From positions 16,525-80,524 of IMG/VR virus record IMGVR_UViG_3300034418_008897: DNA of 64,000 nt; one strand, 5' to 3'. The stretch is from a virus. Below the pieces are notes generated by a model. That model did not search any database and was not told where the DNA came from. It saw only the letters and a list, made by a program, of their open reading frames with translations. The position numbers and the translations under genes are program-made. Positions 6,610 to 64,000 of this stretch are shown here, piece after piece. Within the stretch, counting starts at the first letter, position 1. The number at the start of each line of letters is the position of its first letter.

Positions 6610-7880
6610 TATATTAAAATATTACCTTGTGAATCACTTGTGTTTGTAATTGTCTGTGTTACATTTGCTGTATTAACAGGTGTAGTTGAACCAATAAATG
6701 TGTTATTAGCGATTGCAGAAGTTGTTCCACCTGATGCTGTTAAACAGTATGCACTAGCATCAGAAACTTGTAGTACATTATTCTGAATATAGCAAAATGT
6801 TGCACCAACTGTACCACCAATTGCATGACCACCAGCATTTGCCCAACCAGATTTAATTGTACAATTTTGTATAGTTCCTAATCTGCCAGTTAATGCAACA
6901 TTTGAAGTTGATTCTATAACTGAATTTCTTAATATACAAGAACCTGCAAAAAATGTATAATAACCAACACCTGATGAAGACTTTACATGGCAATTATCTA
7001 ATTGACTAGACGAAGCACCATAATTACTTGTTGAAATGCCTATAGAATTTTTAAAAGCTCCACCACCTAGACCAGCACCACTTGTAGATATACCGACAGA
7101 ATTATACCCAAAATTACTAACAATACCACTTCCACTTGTTGAACGCCCTATACAATTAGATACAACACCATTACAAGTTATAGCTGTCACAGATATAGAT
7201 ATACCAGTACAATCATAACAATTACCAGTAGGGTTAGTTATACCTGAACCTGTACCATAACTTTCAGCAAAACAATTATACATTGTAGAACTAACTGTTC
7301 CTGTTAATGCATTACCATATGCTCTAACATTTAATCCTTTAATTGTACATCTAACAACAACACCTGTACCATAGTCATTATCACAATACACACTACTAAA
7401 TTCAACAACAGATATATCAAAATTTGAATAAAAACAATAACCTGTTTCGCCTATTGCTCTCCCTGTTCTTAGAACATTAAGATTTTTAACTTTACATCTT
7501 GTTGAATTAGGTACAGTAAAAGCATTAGTTGCATCATCAACACTTAAAGTGTATGTATGACCATTACCATTTATTGTAACTTCATTTTTTAATGTTATTG
7601 TAACACTACCAGTTTCCTCAACATCAGCAAACATTTCAATAGTATCGCCGCTAACTGCCGCAGCCATTGCAAGAGTTAATGTTGCATAATAAGTGTATTT
7701 ACCATTTCCGTCAGATATACCAAAAACACCTGTAGGTATTAAAGTAGAAACTAAACCACTGTTAACACCACCATTAGCATCTACTCCTAATAGTTTTACT
7801 ATAGGATCTGCAGAGTAATCTTGCTCTATTAAAGCAGTGTTTACTTTTAATAACCCTTTTATATATTTAACTAAAGACAT
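6609..7880 (-). CDS. Tail spike with parallel beta-helix (pectin-lyase-like) repeats
   Basis: YATLTLAMAAAVSGDTI cap; repeated (N/D)C/S.G.STSG.G units. Confidence 0.65.
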   Translation of the reverse strand: MSLVKYIKGLLKVNTALIEQDYSADPIVKLLGVDANGGVNSGLVSTLIPTGVFGISDGNGKYTYYATLTLAMAAAVSGDTIEMFADVEETGSVTITLKNEVTINGNGHTYTLSVDDATNAFTVPNSTRCKVKNLNVLRTGRAIGETGYCFYSNFDISVVEFSSVYCDNDYGTGVVVRCTIKGLNVRAYGNALTGTVSSTMYNCFAESYGTGSGITNPTGNCYDCTGISISVTAITCNGVVSNCIGRSTSGSGIVSNFGYNSVGISTSGAGLGGGAFKNSIGISTSNYGASSSQLDNCHVKSSSGVGYYTFFAGSCILRNSVIESTSNVALTGRLGTIQNCTIKSGWANAGGHAIGGTVGATFCYIQNNVLQVSDASAYCLTASGGTTSAIANNTFIGSTTPVNTANVTQTITNTSDSQGNILI

Positions 7881-29950: not shown

Positions 29951-30601
29951 TTATTCTATTGTTCTATATATAACATCTTGTGCTTCATCATTTAAAATCC
30001 AGTTACCCACACCTTCTAATTTATAAGCGTAAGGCACTGTGCTTTTTTCTCTAGTTACAGTTTTATTACCATCTTTATCTGTAGTAATTACAGTAACATA
30101 TTTATAAATAGCATCTTTAAACTCTTTTGTTGGAGAGTTTTCTTCAAGTTCTATTTTTGGTTTTAATTCTTTAGAAGGAGAAATCTCAACAATAGATAAA
30201 GCCGCCCTCATTGGCATCTTATCTACTTTAGGCTTTTCTTTTTTAACTTCTTCAATTTTTGGAACAGAAGCTGCAACAGTTTTTAAAACTACTTTTTTAG
30301 GTTGCTTTATATCTTCAAAACTGCTTATATTAAACGGTTGATTATTTTTAGCTTCTAACCTTTTAATAGCTGGTACTATAACAGTAGCCTCATAAGATCT
30401 ATTTTTTTCAGTATAATCTTGGTATGCTTTAACTTTTTCCTCTTGAGTATTTAAAGTTTTTAATTTAGATTCTAATTCTTTAAAATAATTAAAAACTTTT
30501 GCGCTATCCGCTTCACTTTCTTTTAAGCCAGTTAAAGCTATGGGGTCTGTTGTGTAATAAACCCCGCTTGTACCACTCTGATATTTTTTTAGTAGTGACA
30601 T
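29951..30601 (-). CDS. Tagged putative cargo protein
   Basis: Starts MSLLKKYQSG, matching the N-terminal tag of the 37-49.6 kb array. Confidence 0.55.
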   Translation of the reverse strand: MSLLKKYQSGTSGVYYTTDPIALTGLKESEADSAKVFNYFKELESKLKTLNTQEEKVKAYQDYTEKNRSYEATVIVPAIKRLEAKNNQPFNISSFEDIKQPKKVVLKTVAASVPKIEEVKKEKPKVDKMPMRAALSIVEISPSKELKPKIELEENSPTKEFKDAIYKYVTVITTDKDGNKTVTREKSTVPYAYKLEGVGNWILNDEAQDVIYRTIE

Positions 30602-32971
30602 TTATAAATTATTTTTTATTTCCCTTGCATTACCCGCTACATTTTCTGCATATAACTGCTCTCTTTCTAAACGAACTACTTCTTTATCTTTCTCTACTTC
30701 AGCTGTAGCTGTTTTTTCATCTAAATCTAATCTTCTTTCGCTGATTTTAATTCGTTCTTCAGATTCTTTTTTACGAATCTCCAGATCTTGCATTTTATAT
30801 TCTCTATCTGATTTTTCAAGTTTTTCTTTTTCTTTTTGGGTTTTTTCTAGCTCTGTTTGCAATTGTTTAGCTTGCTCAGAAAGTTGCTCCAATTGTTGAG
30901 CCATTTGTTGCAGTTGATTATTCTCTTCTTTTTTCTTTTTAATACTTTCTGACAATAATAGATTAGCTTCTGTGATAGAGTCAGTCATCATCAATTTCAT
31001 CAATACCTCGTCTTCTATAGAGCCTTTACCTGCTAATTGAGGCGCAAGAGCGTTCAATTTTTCTAATTTTAAGTTTTCTTTACTAGAATTTACTAATTGA
31101 ATATTGAAATCAGTAAACCTAAAGTTTTCTGGAGAAGCATTAAATAAAATGTTTCTATGGCCAACTATATAAGCTCCTTTCTTACCTTCTTTATAAGTAA
31201 TTTTAGCTTGGTTTAATAAATCAATCAAAACAAATTTTCTACTATCAAAAACTAATTCAAATAAATCTTTTGTAATTAAAGATGTTTGTTTAATACCAGT
31301 TTTAACATTTGTGACTGCATCTCTTTGTTCAGCAGCTGCATACATATATCTGTTTATACCTGTAACAATATCAGCTTGTGCTTGTATAGATTCTAAAACA
31401 ACATTTAATTGTTGTATAATATTTCCATTTAAAGAACCTCTGAAATCCCCATAATGTTGGAATAAACCAGCTCCTTCTTCTGTTGGGTCGTATAATTCTA
31501 ATCCTTGTTTACGGAAAGCTACAAATTTAAGTAATCTTTCCATAAAATCTTGCCCTAATACTTTTGGTATAGCAGCTAAATTAACACGAGAGCCATCTAC
31601 ACCTGCGTTAGCAATTAAATTATCTCTAAAGAAAGTAATTACATCATAAGAATTTTGTAAGTCTTCTAGAGACAACGCTACTGAATATGGCCTAGTATTT
31701 CTATCGTTATAACCAACTCCATTTATAGATAAAGTAGTTTTCCAAGGCGCACTTATACTTCTAGGTGGATTTTTACTCTTACCTAAATTTAAATAAATGT
31801 CCCAACCAATTCTAACTCCTTCATACCTATCTAACCTATAGCCTTTCTTATTAGGTTCGCCGTAACCAGCATCTTTTCCACCTCTGAGGTCTTTATCTAA
31901 AACTTCGCTGTAATATTTGCTCTTTTTTATGGTTTCTACTACTTGATAGCTTTCTTTATCTTCTCCCGCAATTTCTACTTCATTGTTCGCTAACCATTCT
32001 ACATGGTATACAGGTAAAGTATCCCACATAGAATTCAAATGTTGGTTGTAGGTAGTATTCGCAGCTAATTCATAAATCCTATCCAACTGCCTTGGGTCCC
32101 TAATAACTTGAGCGCCTGATGAATCTGATTTACCGTATAAAATAGTTTTTTGTTCGTCAGTCATTACATGACCCCATTTATTTAAAATAGCTGTTCTAGT
32201 CATATAAGTCCTGTGAACTACTGCAGTTACATTAGGTTCGTTTCCGTTAGATAAAAACTGAAAGTTTGTATTTTTACTAAAAAATACATTTTCAGGTTTA
32301 CATATTTCTAATTTTGGGTCTTCCCCTTCTCGGTCTATATAAGTTCTATAATAAGCTTCCCCCGTTATTAATAAATCTAAAAGATATTGTTTTAGTTTTT
32401 GTTTTAAATCTATAGTAGGGTCTTGCTCAAAAAATTTAATTAAAGATTGAGCTGCAATTTCGTATTGAGAAACAAAATCACTATTTAATGTTTTATTCAA
32501 ATTTTCAATGAAGCTTTCTTCATAAGCTGTTTTAGGGCTTTCTTTACCGGCTTTTATTGCTTCTGTTGTATCTTTTTTAAATTGCTCTAACTTTTTTAAT
32601 ATTTCTTCGCTTTTCTTTTTCATCTTTTGCGCTTCTATATTATTTATAGTTTGAGCGTCATTCATAGAAATGCGATAGGTATACTCTTCATCTAAGAATA
32701 TACCTATTAATACATCTATTTTAGTTTTTACTAGAGGAGTCATTTTTACAGACATAGGAGTTTCTATGCCAAAAACTTGCTCTAAATATGCAAATTCTTC
32801 TTTATCCCGCACACCATCATATAAATTTCTAGCTTTTCTGATGTGTTCTTTTTCTCTAACTAAAGCAGAAATATAAAAATCAACGCTTTGACTTAAATAG
32901 TCAAATTTTGATTTATCCTCTTCAGATATAGAAACATCTTCAATGTGGTAGTAACGTTGTATAAGACTCAT
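30602..32971 (-). CDS. Portal protein
   Basis: 789 aa; KIDVLIG, DLLITGEAYY, RYEGVRIG..IY and ADIVTGINR motifs; C-terminal coiled coil; between terminase and scaffold. Confidence 0.85.
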   Translation of the reverse strand: MSLIQRYYHIEDVSISEEDKSKFDYLSQSVDFYISALVREKEHIRKARNLYDGVRDKEEFAYLEQVFGIETPMSVKMTPLVKTKIDVLIGIFLDEEYTYRISMNDAQTINNIEAQKMKKKSEEILKKLEQFKKDTTEAIKAGKESPKTAYEESFIENLNKTLNSDFVSQYEIAAQSLIKFFEQDPTIDLKQKLKQYLLDLLITGEAYYRTYIDREGEDPKLEICKPENVFFSKNTNFQFLSNGNEPNVTAVVHRTYMTRTAILNKWGHVMTDEQKTILYGKSDSSGAQVIRDPRQLDRIYELAANTTYNQHLNSMWDTLPVYHVEWLANNEVEIAGEDKESYQVVETIKKSKYYSEVLDKDLRGGKDAGYGEPNKKGYRLDRYEGVRIGWDIYLNLGKSKNPPRSISAPWKTTLSINGVGYNDRNTRPYSVALSLEDLQNSYDVITFFRDNLIANAGVDGSRVNLAAIPKVLGQDFMERLLKFVAFRKQGLELYDPTEEGAGLFQHYGDFRGSLNGNIIQQLNVVLESIQAQADIVTGINRYMYAAAEQRDAVTNVKTGIKQTSLITKDLFELVFDSRKFVLIDLLNQAKITYKEGKKGAYIVGHRNILFNASPENFRFTDFNIQLVNSSKENLKLEKLNALAPQLAGKGSIEDEVLMKLMMTDSITEANLLLSESIKKKKEENNQLQQMAQQLEQLSEQAKQLQTELEKTQKEKEKLEKSDREYKMQDLEIRKKESEERIKISERRLDLDEKTATAEVEKDKEVVRLEREQLYAENVAGNAREIKNNL

Positions 32972-52901: not shown

Positions 52902-52963
52902 ACTCGTCTGAGCGAGTATAAATAGGCTTTAGGCTCAGAGCGTCCCACTTCGGTGGGGGTAGT
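52902..52963 (+). ncRNA. Pistol self-cleaving ribozyme
   Basis: P1 ACTCG/CGAGT; loop TCTGAG pairs with CTCAGA; ATAAATAG linker; P2 GCT/AGT; TTAGG; GCG; P3 TCCCAC-TTCG-GTGGGG; GT cleavage dinucleotide at 52959-52960. Confidence 0.9.
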
Positions 52964-52985
52964 ATTAATTTAAAATTTAAAAGTT

Positions 52986-58792: not shown

Positions 58793-58866
58793 GCTCCTGT
58801 AGCTCAGTTGGTTAGAGCACCTGACTCATAATCAGGTGGTCCTAGGTTCGAGCCCTAGCAGGAGCA
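58793..58866 (+). tRNA. tRNA with CAU anticodon, probably Ile2 (lysidine type); elongator Met not excluded
   Basis: GCTCCTG/CAGGAGC acceptor; CCTGA-CTCATAA-TCAGG anticodon arm; CTAGG-TTCGAGC-CCTAG T arm; no encoded CCA. Confidence 0.9.
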
Positions 58867-58882
58867 CTTAAATATTTAAATT

Positions 58883-59418: not shown

Positions 59419-59985
59419 ATGCCTAATTATTGTTGGAATTCTATTACTATATACAAAGAAGATATTAAATTATTGGAAGAATTAAAATCAAAATTTGAAA
59501 ATAATAGCTTTAATTATAGTATAGATTATTATAAAAATTTATTTCCTGCTGATTATATTTTACCAGATATAGAAATTCATGACATTTATAGTGTTAGTAG
59601 TACTTTTGGCTCTAAGTGGTTTGATTTATCTAGCTGCTATATAGAAGAAGATAATACTTTGATATTAAATGGAGATAGTGCTTGGGGCCCTATTGTACCT
59701 TTAGTAAAAATGCTATCAGAAGCTTATCAATGTAATACTTCTATATATTATGAAGAACCAGGTTGTGATTTTGGTGGTAAAGCTGAATATAATTGTGGAG
59801 AAATTGTAGAAGAATTACACACTACTTACTTGCATATAAGATATATAGATGATGGATTAGAAGCTATTTATAATGAATTTCAAGAAGGTTTTATAAGTTG
59901 TGAAAGATTGGCTGAAATATCTGAATTTGTAAGTGATGAGGATTTTGAAGAAATATTAAATAATTATAAAGATGTACAAAATTAA
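59419..59985 (+). CDS. DUF1281/YubB ferredoxin-like domain protein
   Basis: MPNYCWN, FGSKW, SAWGP and YEEPGCDFGG motifs. Confidence 0.65.
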   Translation: MPNYCWNSITIYKEDIKLLEELKSKFENNSFNYSIDYYKNLFPADYILPDIEIHDIYSVSSTFGSKWFDLSSCYIEEDNTLILNGDSAWGPIVPLVKMLSEAYQCNTSIYYEEPGCDFGGKAEYNCGEIVEELHTTYLHIRYIDDGLEAIYNEFQEGFISCERLAEISEFVSDEDFEEILNNYKDVQN

Positions 59986-62841: not shown

Positions 62842-63011
62842 AATTAATACTTTTTAAAAGCAATGAATTTTATTGTTATAAGTCCCAAGACATCGTAACA
62901 AGACGTATAGGTTATAGAAATTATTATAATCAAGAGAAATGTTATTATAATAATTCAGGTATTATTATAGGTTATGAATATTATAATAAATTACATTATT
63001 ATAATATATAA
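62838..63011 (+). CDS. MKL-family paralogue 6 (57 aa)
   Basis: Translated by hand: MKLIL...IGY...KCYY...IGY...HYYNI. Confidence 0.55.
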   Translation: MKLILFKSNEFYCYKSQDIVTRRIGYRNYYNQEKCYYNNSGIIIGYEYYNKLHYYNI

Positions 63012-63167
63012 AATAATTAGCCCTCTGCCTAGCGCTGGGTATGGATCGAAGATGGGGACGGCGGTCTTAAATGACAATAGGTTTTTGAACCTAGCACACT
63101 TCCCTCCGAATCGTGGGTCGGCACAGTTTTTACCGTTTCTGGGGTTATTTTGTAAAAAACGGTTTAT

Positions 63168-63293
63168 AGTCAGGTGGCGGAATTGGTAGACGCATGAATA
63201 AAGGTTAATAGTAAAGATAACGAAGAGTAACCTTGAGATACCCGTAAAGTCAGCTCATAAGTTATCATATAGGTTCGAATCCTGTCCTGACTA
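63168..63293 (+). ncRNA. tRNA-like RNA with Leu-type D arm and no canonical anticodon arm
   Basis: AGTCAGG/CCTGACT acceptor; TGGCGGAATTGGTAGACGC D arm; ATAGG-TTCGAAT-CCTGT T arm; 75-nt branched insert between the D and T arms. Confidence 0.75.
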
Positions 63294-63534: not shown

Positions 63535-63732
63535 ATGAAGTTGATATTAAGTAAAAGTTATTATGATAATAATCAATTATATTTTCTTAATTTTTCTACA
63601 TATGGTATAATTATGCAGGGTTATGAAATAATTAATTGGTACGATGAAACTGTGTCTAAAGTATATTATATTAATAATGAGAAGATTGGTTTTGAAATTA
63701 AAGAAAGTACAATAAAACACTATAATATATGA
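63535..63732 (+). CDS. MKL-family paralogue 7
   Basis: MKLIL...QGY...KVYY...IGF...KHYNI. Confidence 0.55.
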   Translation: MKLILSKSYYDNNQLYFLNFSTYGIIMQGYEIINWYDETVSKVYYINNEKIGFEIKESTIKHYNI

Positions 63733-64000
63733 AAAATATTTACATAGGAGATATACACGGTCGTGATATATGGAAACAGATAGTAGCAGAGAATGAAGAT
63801 GCTGACAATATTGTATTCATTGGTGATTATTTTGATTCATTTGATATACCAGGTGTTGTACAATTAAGAAATGCTAGAGATATAGTAGAATTTAAAAAAT
63901 CCACAGAATTAGATCCTAGCAAACGAGTTTACTTGTTAATAGGAAACCATGATATTCATTATATGCGAGGTATTAACGGTAAAGGTACAACTAGTGGTTT
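63729..64000 (+). CDS. Calcineurin-like metallophosphoesterase, truncated at the window end
   Basis: IGDIHG, FIGDYFD and LIGNHD motifs (translated by hand). Confidence 0.85.
   Translation, partial: MKNIYIGDIHGRDIWKQIVAENEDADNIVFIGDYFDSFDIPGVVQLRNARDIVEFKKSTELDPSKRVYLLIGNHDIHYMRGINGKGTTSG

Follow-up and report, generated by a model that had tools for sequence, protein, structure and literature searches.

The closest known system to the element described here is RNA1 of phage T5, recorded in AY543070 at 30501-30644 as a misc_RNA, 'tRNA-like stable RNA with unknown functions'. It is kept in 487 records of T5-like phages. Composite RNAs built on a tRNA have also been engineered: in the tRNA scaffold, a recombinant RNA is embedded in a tRNA body for processing and stability, with the cargo placed in the anticodon stem. 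Among natural RNAs, the YrlA Y RNAs are permuted tRNA mimics encoded beside Ro60, which join a tRNA-like domain to a Ro-binding stem and occur in phages (PMC4201824). For leucine tRNAs, the features read by the Escherichia coli synthetase are known: leucine identity resides in A73, the A15-U48 pair, G18G19 and A20a; LeuRS dispenses with the anticodon and the variable arm, a minimal tRNA-Leu without both still being charged; and the anticodon arm is needed for editing only (PMC9976931).

Here we analyse a phage-borne element that an initial annotation, made from the DNA letters, had described as a tRNA mimic with intact acceptor, D and T arms and an altered anticodon region. It lies in a window, the whole 64-kb stretch of DNA that was analysed, which forms the final part of an 80.5-kb IMG/VR viral record. 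PHROGs for portal, terminase and capsid were found in this record, the relatives of its terminase among GenBank phages are all Crassvirales (21-35% identity), and the stretch occurs in sequencing runs of freshwater or estuary metagenomes. The carrier is a freshwater crAss-like phage.

Results

A tRNA frame without an anticodon arm

The Rfam tRNA model (RF00005) spans positions 63168-63293 (+ strand) of the window end to end, with 36.2 bits against a gathering score of 29 and model positions 1-71 covered; its alignment skips 66 nt at the place of the anticodon arm. This match bears out the coordinates, the 7-bp acceptor AGTCAGG/CCTGACT, A73, the Leu-type D arm and the T arm as first read from the sequence. 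ARAGORN calls no tRNA at 63168-63293, its sole tRNA call in the window being a tRNA-Met at 58793. The element is 126 nt long, of which 75 nt form an insert between the D and T arms; we refer to the tRNA frame around the insert as the shell. Its parts are as follows.

63168-63174, + strand: 5' strand of the acceptor stem, AGTCAGG (7 bp), pairing with 63286-63292; its last 4 nt are those of host tRNA-Leu
63175-63193, + strand: U8, G9 and the Leu-type D arm (GCG/CGC stem; loop with A14, A15 and G18G19), identical to host tRNA-Leu
63194-63215, + strand: linker of 22 nt at the place of the anticodon arm, including AGGTTA (63202-63207); unpaired in the MFE fold
63202-63207, + strand: putative pseudoknot strand AGGTTA, with partner TAACCT at 63228-63233; the same pairing as hairpin 1 of the initial annotation
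63216-63266, + strand: predicted expanded variable arm, about 51 nt, assigned from homologue pairing, the family register and host tRNA-Leu
63216-63221 and 63261-63266, + strand: closing helix of the variable arm, GATAAC/GTTATC, from the alignment of 33 homologues
63225-63227 and 63254-63256, + strand: inner helix of the variable arm, GAG/CTC
about 63234-63253, + strand: variable tip of the arm
63267-63268, + strand: spacer AU, positions 47 and 48, U48 being the Levitt-pair partner of A15; the same AT spacer is found in host tRNA-Leu
63269-63285, + strand: T arm, ATAGG TTCGAAT CCTGT, from the Rfam alignment; three of five pairs are compensated in homologues
63286-63293, + strand: 3' strand of the acceptor stem, CCTGACT, and discriminator A73; CCA is not encoded, the tail being CAAA

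A 5-bp stem with a 7-nt loop, the mark of an anticodon arm, is absent from the insert (63194-63268) by sequence, by the Rfam alignment and by ARAGORN, and the insert has no Rfam match up to an E value of 10. The view that this is a tRNA-like RNA gene and not a tRNA therefore holds: the frame matches RF00005 and the anticodon stem-loop is missing. Since, in addition, the isotypes that ARAGORN proposes for homologues conflict with one another, the element is not a decoding tRNA. It sits in a block of small ORFs on the + strand, with the next ORF starting 23 nt downstream; no terminator was found near the element.

A GC-rich stretch immediately upstream (63008-63167) was considered as part of a co-folded RNA and rejected, as it folds worse than shuffles (z +1.48). 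No exact homologue of its 26-nt core was found in IMG/VR, and the stretch is not kept upstream of homologous shells. An ORF lying over it (62974-63189) was likewise rejected as a protein gene, its translation looking non-protein-like.

Conservation of the insert and its fold

The same class of insert is present in 55 viral contigs including the window's own, collected with two differently anchored patterns (41 contigs, then 54) and comprising complete records of 105 kb to ~271 kb among others. In every one of these 55 contigs the insert sits inside the shell. The flanks of the loci are unrelated, and no neighbouring ORF is common to the class, the best real ORF recurring in 14/55 loci. In one contig, L197, the shell around this insert is strongly diverged, with other acceptor, D and T sequences throughout, which shows that insert and shell are separable, exchangeable modules.

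Selection on the RNA is evident from compensatory changes in the acceptor, D and T stems, which occur at seven pairs in 26 distinct sequences (0 of 500 shuffles scored as high); acceptor pair C4:G69, for example, is replaced by G:C in five homologues. The element at 63168-63293 (+) is real, and selection acts on it. Damaged copies account for 5 of the 28 distinct sequences of the first collection, with the 5' half replaced in L215 and L220, the 3' end altered in L033 and one extra base in the acceptor stem of L053 and L206.

Across 33 distinct homologues the insert is almost invariant over ~55 positions save for the ~20-nt tip. This invariance is partly imposed by the collecting patterns, each of which fixed a different part of the insert while the other part was still nearly invariant; recent horizontal spread, as well as the patterns, could contribute in part. 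The earlier proposal that the tRNA-like RNA displays a conserved extra domain agrees with these alignments. We also observed that the linker of this class opens AUG AAU AAA GGU UAA UAG, a frame that other insert classes do not have; third-position bias in it (three of four variable sites, p ~0.11) is not significant.

The insert had been drawn as a three-way junction replacing the anticodon arm: a basal stem (63194-63201/63262-63268) bearing hairpin 1 (63202-63207/63228-63233) and hairpin 2 (63234-63237/63254-63257), with GTAAAG in both loops. All three stems can form in the window copy. The MFE fold differs from this drawing, and the single-sequence fold is no better than shuffles, with z −0.87 for the whole element and −1.59 for the insert. 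Among the 33 homologues, hairpin 2 (TGAG/CTCA) has only 67% of cells paired, two of the four pairs being broken in 16 and 27 sequences, and the basal stem shows four uncompensated breaks. A rival helix that uses the 3' strand of the basal stem, GATAAC/GTTATC, is 100% paired in the same alignment, with five changes, all to G-U. AGGTTA/TAACCT, the former hairpin 1, has 99.5% of cells paired, with two G-U changes and one break. A compensatory double change was found in none of the insert helices among these homologues, so covariation cannot settle the fold of the insert. The first reading thus stands for the existence of three stems in this copy and fails for hairpin 2 and the basal stem in the homologues; nor does the second GTAAAG (63244-63249) belong to the pattern, as it is not kept in homologues.

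The wider family described below supplies a register for the insert. Of 97 unrelated insert classes, 38 have an MFE fold with exactly two unpaired nucleotides before the T stem, where 10.4 were expected; the 5' partner of the terminal helix never starts before insert position 6 in the 97 classes; and the last insert base is T (U48) in 94 of them. Host tRNA-Leu genes share this layout, with AU between their variable-arm helix and the T stem. Together, the family register, U48 and the host tRNA-Leu layout indicate that the main helix of the insert, GATAAC/GTTATC, is an expanded variable arm, and that the anticodon arm has been lost, its place now being taken by the 22-nt linker. The three-way junction is, on this register, the wrong anatomy.

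Linkers from 37 unrelated classes exceed their shuffled versions in complementarity to the arm interior (mean z −0.72, p 3e-4), and linker-arm pairing is likewise possible in the relatives from phages BS-TP2 and SPP1. In the window copy, AGGTTA of the linker may pair into the arm (TAACCT) as a pseudoknot.

A family of phage elements

IMG/VR was scanned with patterns for the D arm alone or for the D arm with a distant T arm, each returning more than 100 contigs. At least 196 tRNA-Leu-framed elements were parsed, at least 145 of them having D and T arms 39-137 nt apart; among the matches listed, ARAGORN misses 137 of the 145 long-insert members. Among the matches listed, too, genes that share the D arm and have a gap of ordinary length are called by ARAGORN as Leu in 44 cases out of 49. 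The acceptor of the window copy, AGTCAGG/CCTGACT, is the commonest (79/196 regex matches, among those listed). Further regularities, again among the matches listed, are the discriminator A73 (91/110 members), T as the base at −1 (85/108) and the rarity of an encoded CCA (3/110).

The inserts are far more diverse than the frame. From 108 distinct long inserts we obtained at least 97 unrelated classes, and no k-mers are common to the 97 classes above the level of shuffles. Taken as a population, the inserts give better folds than their dinucleotide shuffles do (mean z −0.85, p 4e-12). Arrays of three to six shells, with inserts that differ from one another, came to light in several loci with a covariance model of the window's insert class. 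A motif found post hoc, GU(A/U)AC(C/U), occurs in 13 of the 97 classes against 4.9 expected and is a lead only; it is present in the window, in BS-TP2 and in both RNAs of phage crAss001.

In a search of 185,579 prokaryote species, each represented by one genome, the 5' half of the shell was found in just five short MAG contigs, on which ground the family is called phage-borne. Other shells matched only the generic tRNA model in Rfam, which has no entry for the shell family as such, and no GenBank phage record covers both halves of the window's shell type. Full-text searches of the literature yielded no account of the family; a 2026 preprint about bacterial tRNA mimics deals with other RNAs. 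Nor is there a conserved neighbour gene: the best is common to at most 22 of ~130 family loci, and the recurring genes are generic replication and recombination genes. Thirteen loci have HNH endonuclease genes close to a shell.

In the window copy the Leu-type D arm, the T arm and the 7-bp acceptor surround an insert within the 39-137 nt range without an anticodon arm; its helix ends 2 nt before the T stem, its terminal base is U and its 5' linker exceeds the minimum of 6 nt. Judged from these features, the element belongs to a phage RNA family that is very large, almost undescribed and near-invariant in its tRNA-Leu upper body. Homologues with conserved arms and variable inserts had been predicted at the outset, and at least 97 insert classes of this kind were found, with no sign of random decay.

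Whole-record searches of cultured phages revealed unannotated relatives in BS-TP2 (PQ571275 19549-19659; 56 bits) and SPP1 (NC_004166 6646-6758; 37 bits) and two in crAss001. The respective hosts are B. salyersiae, B. subtilis and B. intestinalis. The SPP1 relative has no A73, and the revisited SPP1 genome paper makes no mention of tRNA or ncRNA. In crAss001, a Bacteroides phage, Gp96, a TROVE (Ro60-like) protein, is followed directly downstream by the two tRNA-framed RNAs, at MH675552 96201-96342 (142 nt) and 96451-96597 (147 nt).

Origin and leucine identity

In 240 of the 301 Bacteroidia genomes sampled, chromosomal tRNA-Leu genes match shell positions 4-27 with 100% identity, a tally that includes two unpublished genomes (G103 and G189), the identity claim being independent of both. 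Outside this D-arm part of tRNA-Leu, the rest of the element has no match in the 301 genomes. Besides positions 4-27, the window element shares with the class II tRNA-Leu of Bacteroidia the succession of variable-arm helix, AU and T stem, A73 and a tail lacking CCA (host genes have A73 and tails such as CAA, with no encoded CCA). The two differ in that the shell has no anticodon stem-loop, in the variable arm (51 nt as against ~10 in tRNA-Leu) and in acceptor pairs 1-3, which read AGU where the host acceptor, GCCCAGG, has GCC. Derivation from a host-type leucine tRNA of Bacteroidia appears to be the best explanation of these likenesses. We also considered the element as a mimic of some other host RNA and rejected this, the insert having no significant similarity in five MAGs and the D-arm part alone matching the 301 Bacteroidia genomes.

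Every LeuRS identity element defined in E. coli, the D/T loop contacts among them, is present in the window copy, which makes leucylation plausible, on rules that come from E. coli and may not be those of the Bacteroidota enzyme. The initial argument that LeuRS largely ignores the anticodon and reads A73 agrees with the published work (PMC9976931). The acceptor, D and T arms, A73 and U48, which are the features read by tRNA-processing enzymes and LeuRS, are retained, as had been proposed. A73, T at −1 and the absence of an encoded CCA would fit maturation by RNase P, RNase Z and the CCA-adding enzyme.

Evidence from RNA libraries

An exact metatranscriptome contig of 151 nt spans 63031-63181, so that it starts upstream of the element and takes in its first 14 nt, and a second exact contig spans 62965-63115. 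RNA-library contigs may include DNA and do not report RNA ends or levels, and these two lend weak support to transcription. In two RNA libraries, further contigs match just the two halves of the shell, with 33, 40 or 81 other letters between them; having other letters there, they represent other members of the family with their inserts retained, which is evidence against splicing in these relatives. No contig in the RNA libraries covers the window's own insert (63194-63268), which is no evidence of its absence.

Discussion

The element combines an anatomy and a conservation of its own with membership in a family restricted to phage DNA and without a conserved anticodon. We favour, with modest confidence, the reading that it is a non-decoding phage RNA gene whose product serves as a stable carrier, processed like a tRNA, for an effector module on the variable arm. 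For processing, stability, charging and effector role we infer the following course. The RNA would be transcribed within the block of small + strand ORFs, then excised by RNase P and RNase Z, and the CCA-adding enzyme would supply its CCA end. The tRNA core would confer stability, recognition by LeuRS being probable too. The module on the variable arm would be the specific effector part, binding a conserved partner, and the tRNA body would act as the carrier for processing and stability, a natural counterpart of the engineered tRNA scaffold.

More tentatively, and with less expectation of being right, we suggest a general form of this reading: crAss-like, jumbo, T5-like and SPP1-like phages might share one tRNA chassis, matured by the host and possibly leucylated, in which the variable arm is a slot for hundreds of effector modules, the window's module binding one conserved host component. 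If effector modules are indeed carried in this way, phages would have a widespread route to stable small RNAs from polycistronic transcripts. The cultured phage-host pairs make the question directly testable.

An unlikely alternative takes the shell to be the active part. Leucylated by host LeuRS, the RNA would act through its aminoacyl end or by occupying tRNA-binding machinery, for instance as a codon-independent leucine donor or as a competitor for LeuRS, EF-Tu, the ribosomal A site or the CCA-adding enzyme, with the insert mainly barring decoding. The E. coli leucine identity elements are indeed kept (among the matches listed, A73 in 91/110 and U48 in 94/97, with the G18G19 D loop), a tRNA-Leu reduced to its minimum, without anticodon and variable arms, is still charged (PMC9976931), and the 5' part of the shell is identical to host tRNA-Leu. 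However, structured inserts, near-invariance over ~55 positions and arrays of three to six shells with differing inserts are left unexplained by it; moreover, acceptor pairs 1-3 differ from those of host tRNA-Leu and the SPP1 relative lacks A73.

A role as sponge or decoy seems rather improbable to us; the target would be a host defence or toxin that binds the tRNA body, for instance an enzyme that modifies or cuts its acceptor end or elbow, and the inserts would tune binding or evade counter-recognition. Precedents exist, since phage tRNAs are known to neutralise tRNA-targeting defences, a T5 tRNA acting against PARIS, for example (PMC11464382), and a family that is confined to phages and hypervariable is what an arms race predicts. 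Against this, no linked anti-defence gene was found near the family loci, and the window's insert class is highly conserved and not fast-evolving. The more specific idea of the initial annotation, a decoy for anticodon nucleases, is unlikely because neither this copy nor the family has an anticodon loop, so that such nucleases cannot be the target.

The position of the crAss001 pair directly downstream of the TROVE protein Gp96 brings to mind a Y-RNA-like partner of Ro60 (TROVE/Rsr), that is, an unpermuted counterpart of YrlA, which itself unites a tRNA-like domain with a Ro-binding stem and occurs in phages (PMC4201824). The window element does not bear this link out: its own genome, three complete genomes carrying its insert class and ~260 shell loci yielded no TROVE gene, and among 61 sampled Bacteroidia genomes TROVE is encoded by six. 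The YrlA model of Rfam has no match either, and the motif GNCGAA(N)G is not conserved in the class, CGAAG occurring in the window copy only. We regard a role as Ro60 partner as very improbable here.

Equally little speaks for a tRNA-Leu pseudogene in decay, or for a scar left by recombination in a tRNA region that homing endonucleases visit, a reading that is strongly disfavoured. Copies with a replaced 5' half or altered ends (L215, L220 and L033) and the HNH genes at 13 loci speak for it, but the stems show compensatory changes, the insert is near-invariant in 55 contigs with unrelated flanks, and register and U48 are kept over 97 classes.

No intron type other than group I is known in bacterial tRNA genes. 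Such introns exceed ~200 nt, have a P1-P9 core and lie within the anticodon loop. That the element is an interrupted or unusual tRNA gene, from which removal of the insert would yield a decoding tRNA, is scarcely credible: although the frame is complete save for the insert and ARAGORN proposes a tRNA in 20 of 26 homologues when introns are allowed, these proposals conflict among orthologues (Leu, Phe, Ser and Met, with differing intron sites), no conserved anticodon stem-loop exists, the halves of an anticodon loop do not flank the insert, and the relatives' RNA-library contigs retain their inserts. At 75 nt and with no Rfam intron or tmRNA match, the insert is, as first noted, far too short for a group I intron and too short for a tmRNA. 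An antisense regulator of phage genes was rejected, the longest complementary match in the 64-kb window being 12 nt, as in shuffles.

We return to the reading of a tRNA-processed carrier and compare the element with systems already described. The tRNA-like domain of tmRNA resembles it in retaining the upper half of a tRNA without an anticodon, next to a large insert with pseudoknots, and tmRNA is chargeable. It is unlike the element in its alanine identity G3:U70 (pair 3:70 is U:A here, and RF00023 has no match), its degenerate D arm, its tag reading frame and an insert of ~300 nt. If the phage RNAs are charged, they would constitute a second class of anticodon-less aminoacyl-RNAs beside tmRNA.

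YrlA (RF02553; Chen et al. 2014, PMC4201824) likewise fuses a tRNA-like module of D, T and acceptor parts to a second functional module, is found in phages and in some cases is cut by RNase P and given CCA. It is, however, circularly permuted, running from the T arm through a closed acceptor-like stem to the D arm, ends in the Ro-binding stem and has a Ro60 gene adjacent, whereas the window element has its arms in tRNA order, ends at the acceptor stem, has no TROVE gene nearby and shows no RF02553 match.

The T4 species 1 RNA (rnaC), encoded in a phage tRNA cluster, is likewise small and stable and has paired ends and a T arm; it differs in having no Leu-type D arm and reaches 20.9 bits (E 0.02) with the window-class model. 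T5 RNA1 comes nearer. Like the window element, it combines a D arm and loop of Leu type with a standard T arm, the two being ~80 nt apart with no anticodon arm in between; its hairpin ends 2 nt before the T stem, U48 is present, and the setting is again among phage tRNA genes or small ORFs. It departs from the element in its D stem (CCG/CGG), in a longer, imperfect terminal stem with no clear A73, in an unrelated insert and in its score of 27 bits with the window-class covariance model, as for an ordinary tRNA; its hosts are Enterobacteria, as against Bacteroidota for the window element. The stable tRNA-like RNAs of T5 and T4 are thus not oddities of two coliphages, the same build recurring in more than 100 uncultured phage contigs with about 100 unrelated inserts.

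As in the engineered tRNA scaffold, a foreign RNA module lies within a tRNA body, where the cell would process and stabilise it; the difference is that here the arrangement is natural, the cargo is on the variable arm and the anticodon arm is deleted. If the effector modules are real, the family provides a natural precedent for that design.

Genomic surroundings of the shell RNA gene

The DNA 5′ of the tRNA-Leu shell RNA gene contains two unusual stretches:

62918–63007, palindromic-motif cluster, with at least five copies of TTATTATAAT/ATTATAATAA in both orientations
63019–63163, GC-rich stretch immediately 5′ of the shell RNA (42–48% GC versus ∼25–30% in the surroundings)

The first, 160–250 nt 5′ of the shell RNA gene, also holds a 24-nt direct repeat with a spacing of 60 nt; this repeat cluster is a possible operator or promoter region. 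The GC-rich stretch is covered by exact RNA-library contigs. Its folding was no better than that of shuffled sequences, homologous shells show no conserved counterpart at their 5′ side, and the ORF overlapping it looks spurious.

Two protein domains and two further RNA elements were recognized in the window:

52902–52964, + strand, Pistol self-cleaving ribozyme (Rfam RF02679, 74.3 bits; gathering score 34.5)
58793–58867, + strand, tRNA-Met (CAT) (75.6 bits)
59419–59985, + strand, ORF encoding a DUF1281_C domain (Api92-like, ferredoxin-like; E=3.5e-9)
63729–63998, + strand, ORF encoding a phosphoesterase domain of the calcineurin-like type (Metallophos, E=1.6e-7) and running off the contig end

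The Metallophos ORF is located two small ORFs downstream of the shell RNA gene. The tRNA-Met is the sole ordinary tRNA gene of the window, and a search for an ordinary tRNA-Leu across the 80.5-kb record found none. The ribozyme and the shell RNA gene share one + strand small-ORF region of the phage.

Altered copies and tandem arrays

Altered copies and clusters of shell RNAs were found in other contigs, designated by L-numbers:

L215, 256–384, and L220, 12466–12597, 5′-altered copies of the window's insert class
L159, 99–914; L154, 6685–8742; and L235, 1409–3536, tandem shell-RNA arrays

Both altered copies have lost the shell's 5′ half, comprising the acceptor and part of the D arm; unrelated sequence stands in its place up to GGTAGACGC, a replacement that may have arisen by recombination or endonuclease-driven rewriting. 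Each array packs three to six shell RNAs with differing insert lengths into 1–2.5 kb, and the contig carrying one of the three was binned into a Chitinophagaceae MAG.

Unannotated RNAs in named phages

Related RNAs, all lacking annotation, were located in three named phages:

PQ571275 (Bacteroides phage BS-TP2), 19549–19659, + strand, 111-nt shell RNA, 56 bits (L257, 1494–1604)
NC_004166 (SPP1), 6646–6758, + strand, shell-like RNA (L268, 647–759)
MH675552 (crAss001), 96201–96342 and 96451–96597, − strand, a 142-nt and a 147-nt tRNA-framed RNA (L267, 602–743 and 852–998)

The BS-TP2 RNA, flanked by a DUF2303 gene and NinG, has an insert class and gene context common to ∼20 IMG/VR contigs; a cultured host–phage pair is therefore available for the shell family. 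The SPP1 RNA, which sits between late-operon genes 9 and 11, combines a Leu-type D arm and an 8-bp terminal stem with a 7-bp arm helix that stops 2 nt short of the T stem, and lacks A73; the paper on the revisited SPP1 genome makes no mention of it.

Both crAss001 RNAs contain AGAGUUACUUCAA and lie immediately downstream of the gene for Gp96, a TROVE (Ro60-like) protein. In one of them the D arm is of class I and the insertion measures 82 nt (Rfam tRNA, 46.6 bits). YrlA Y RNAs are permuted tRNA mimics encoded beside a Ro60 gene, and the crAss001 pair are candidate unpermuted Y-RNA analogues.
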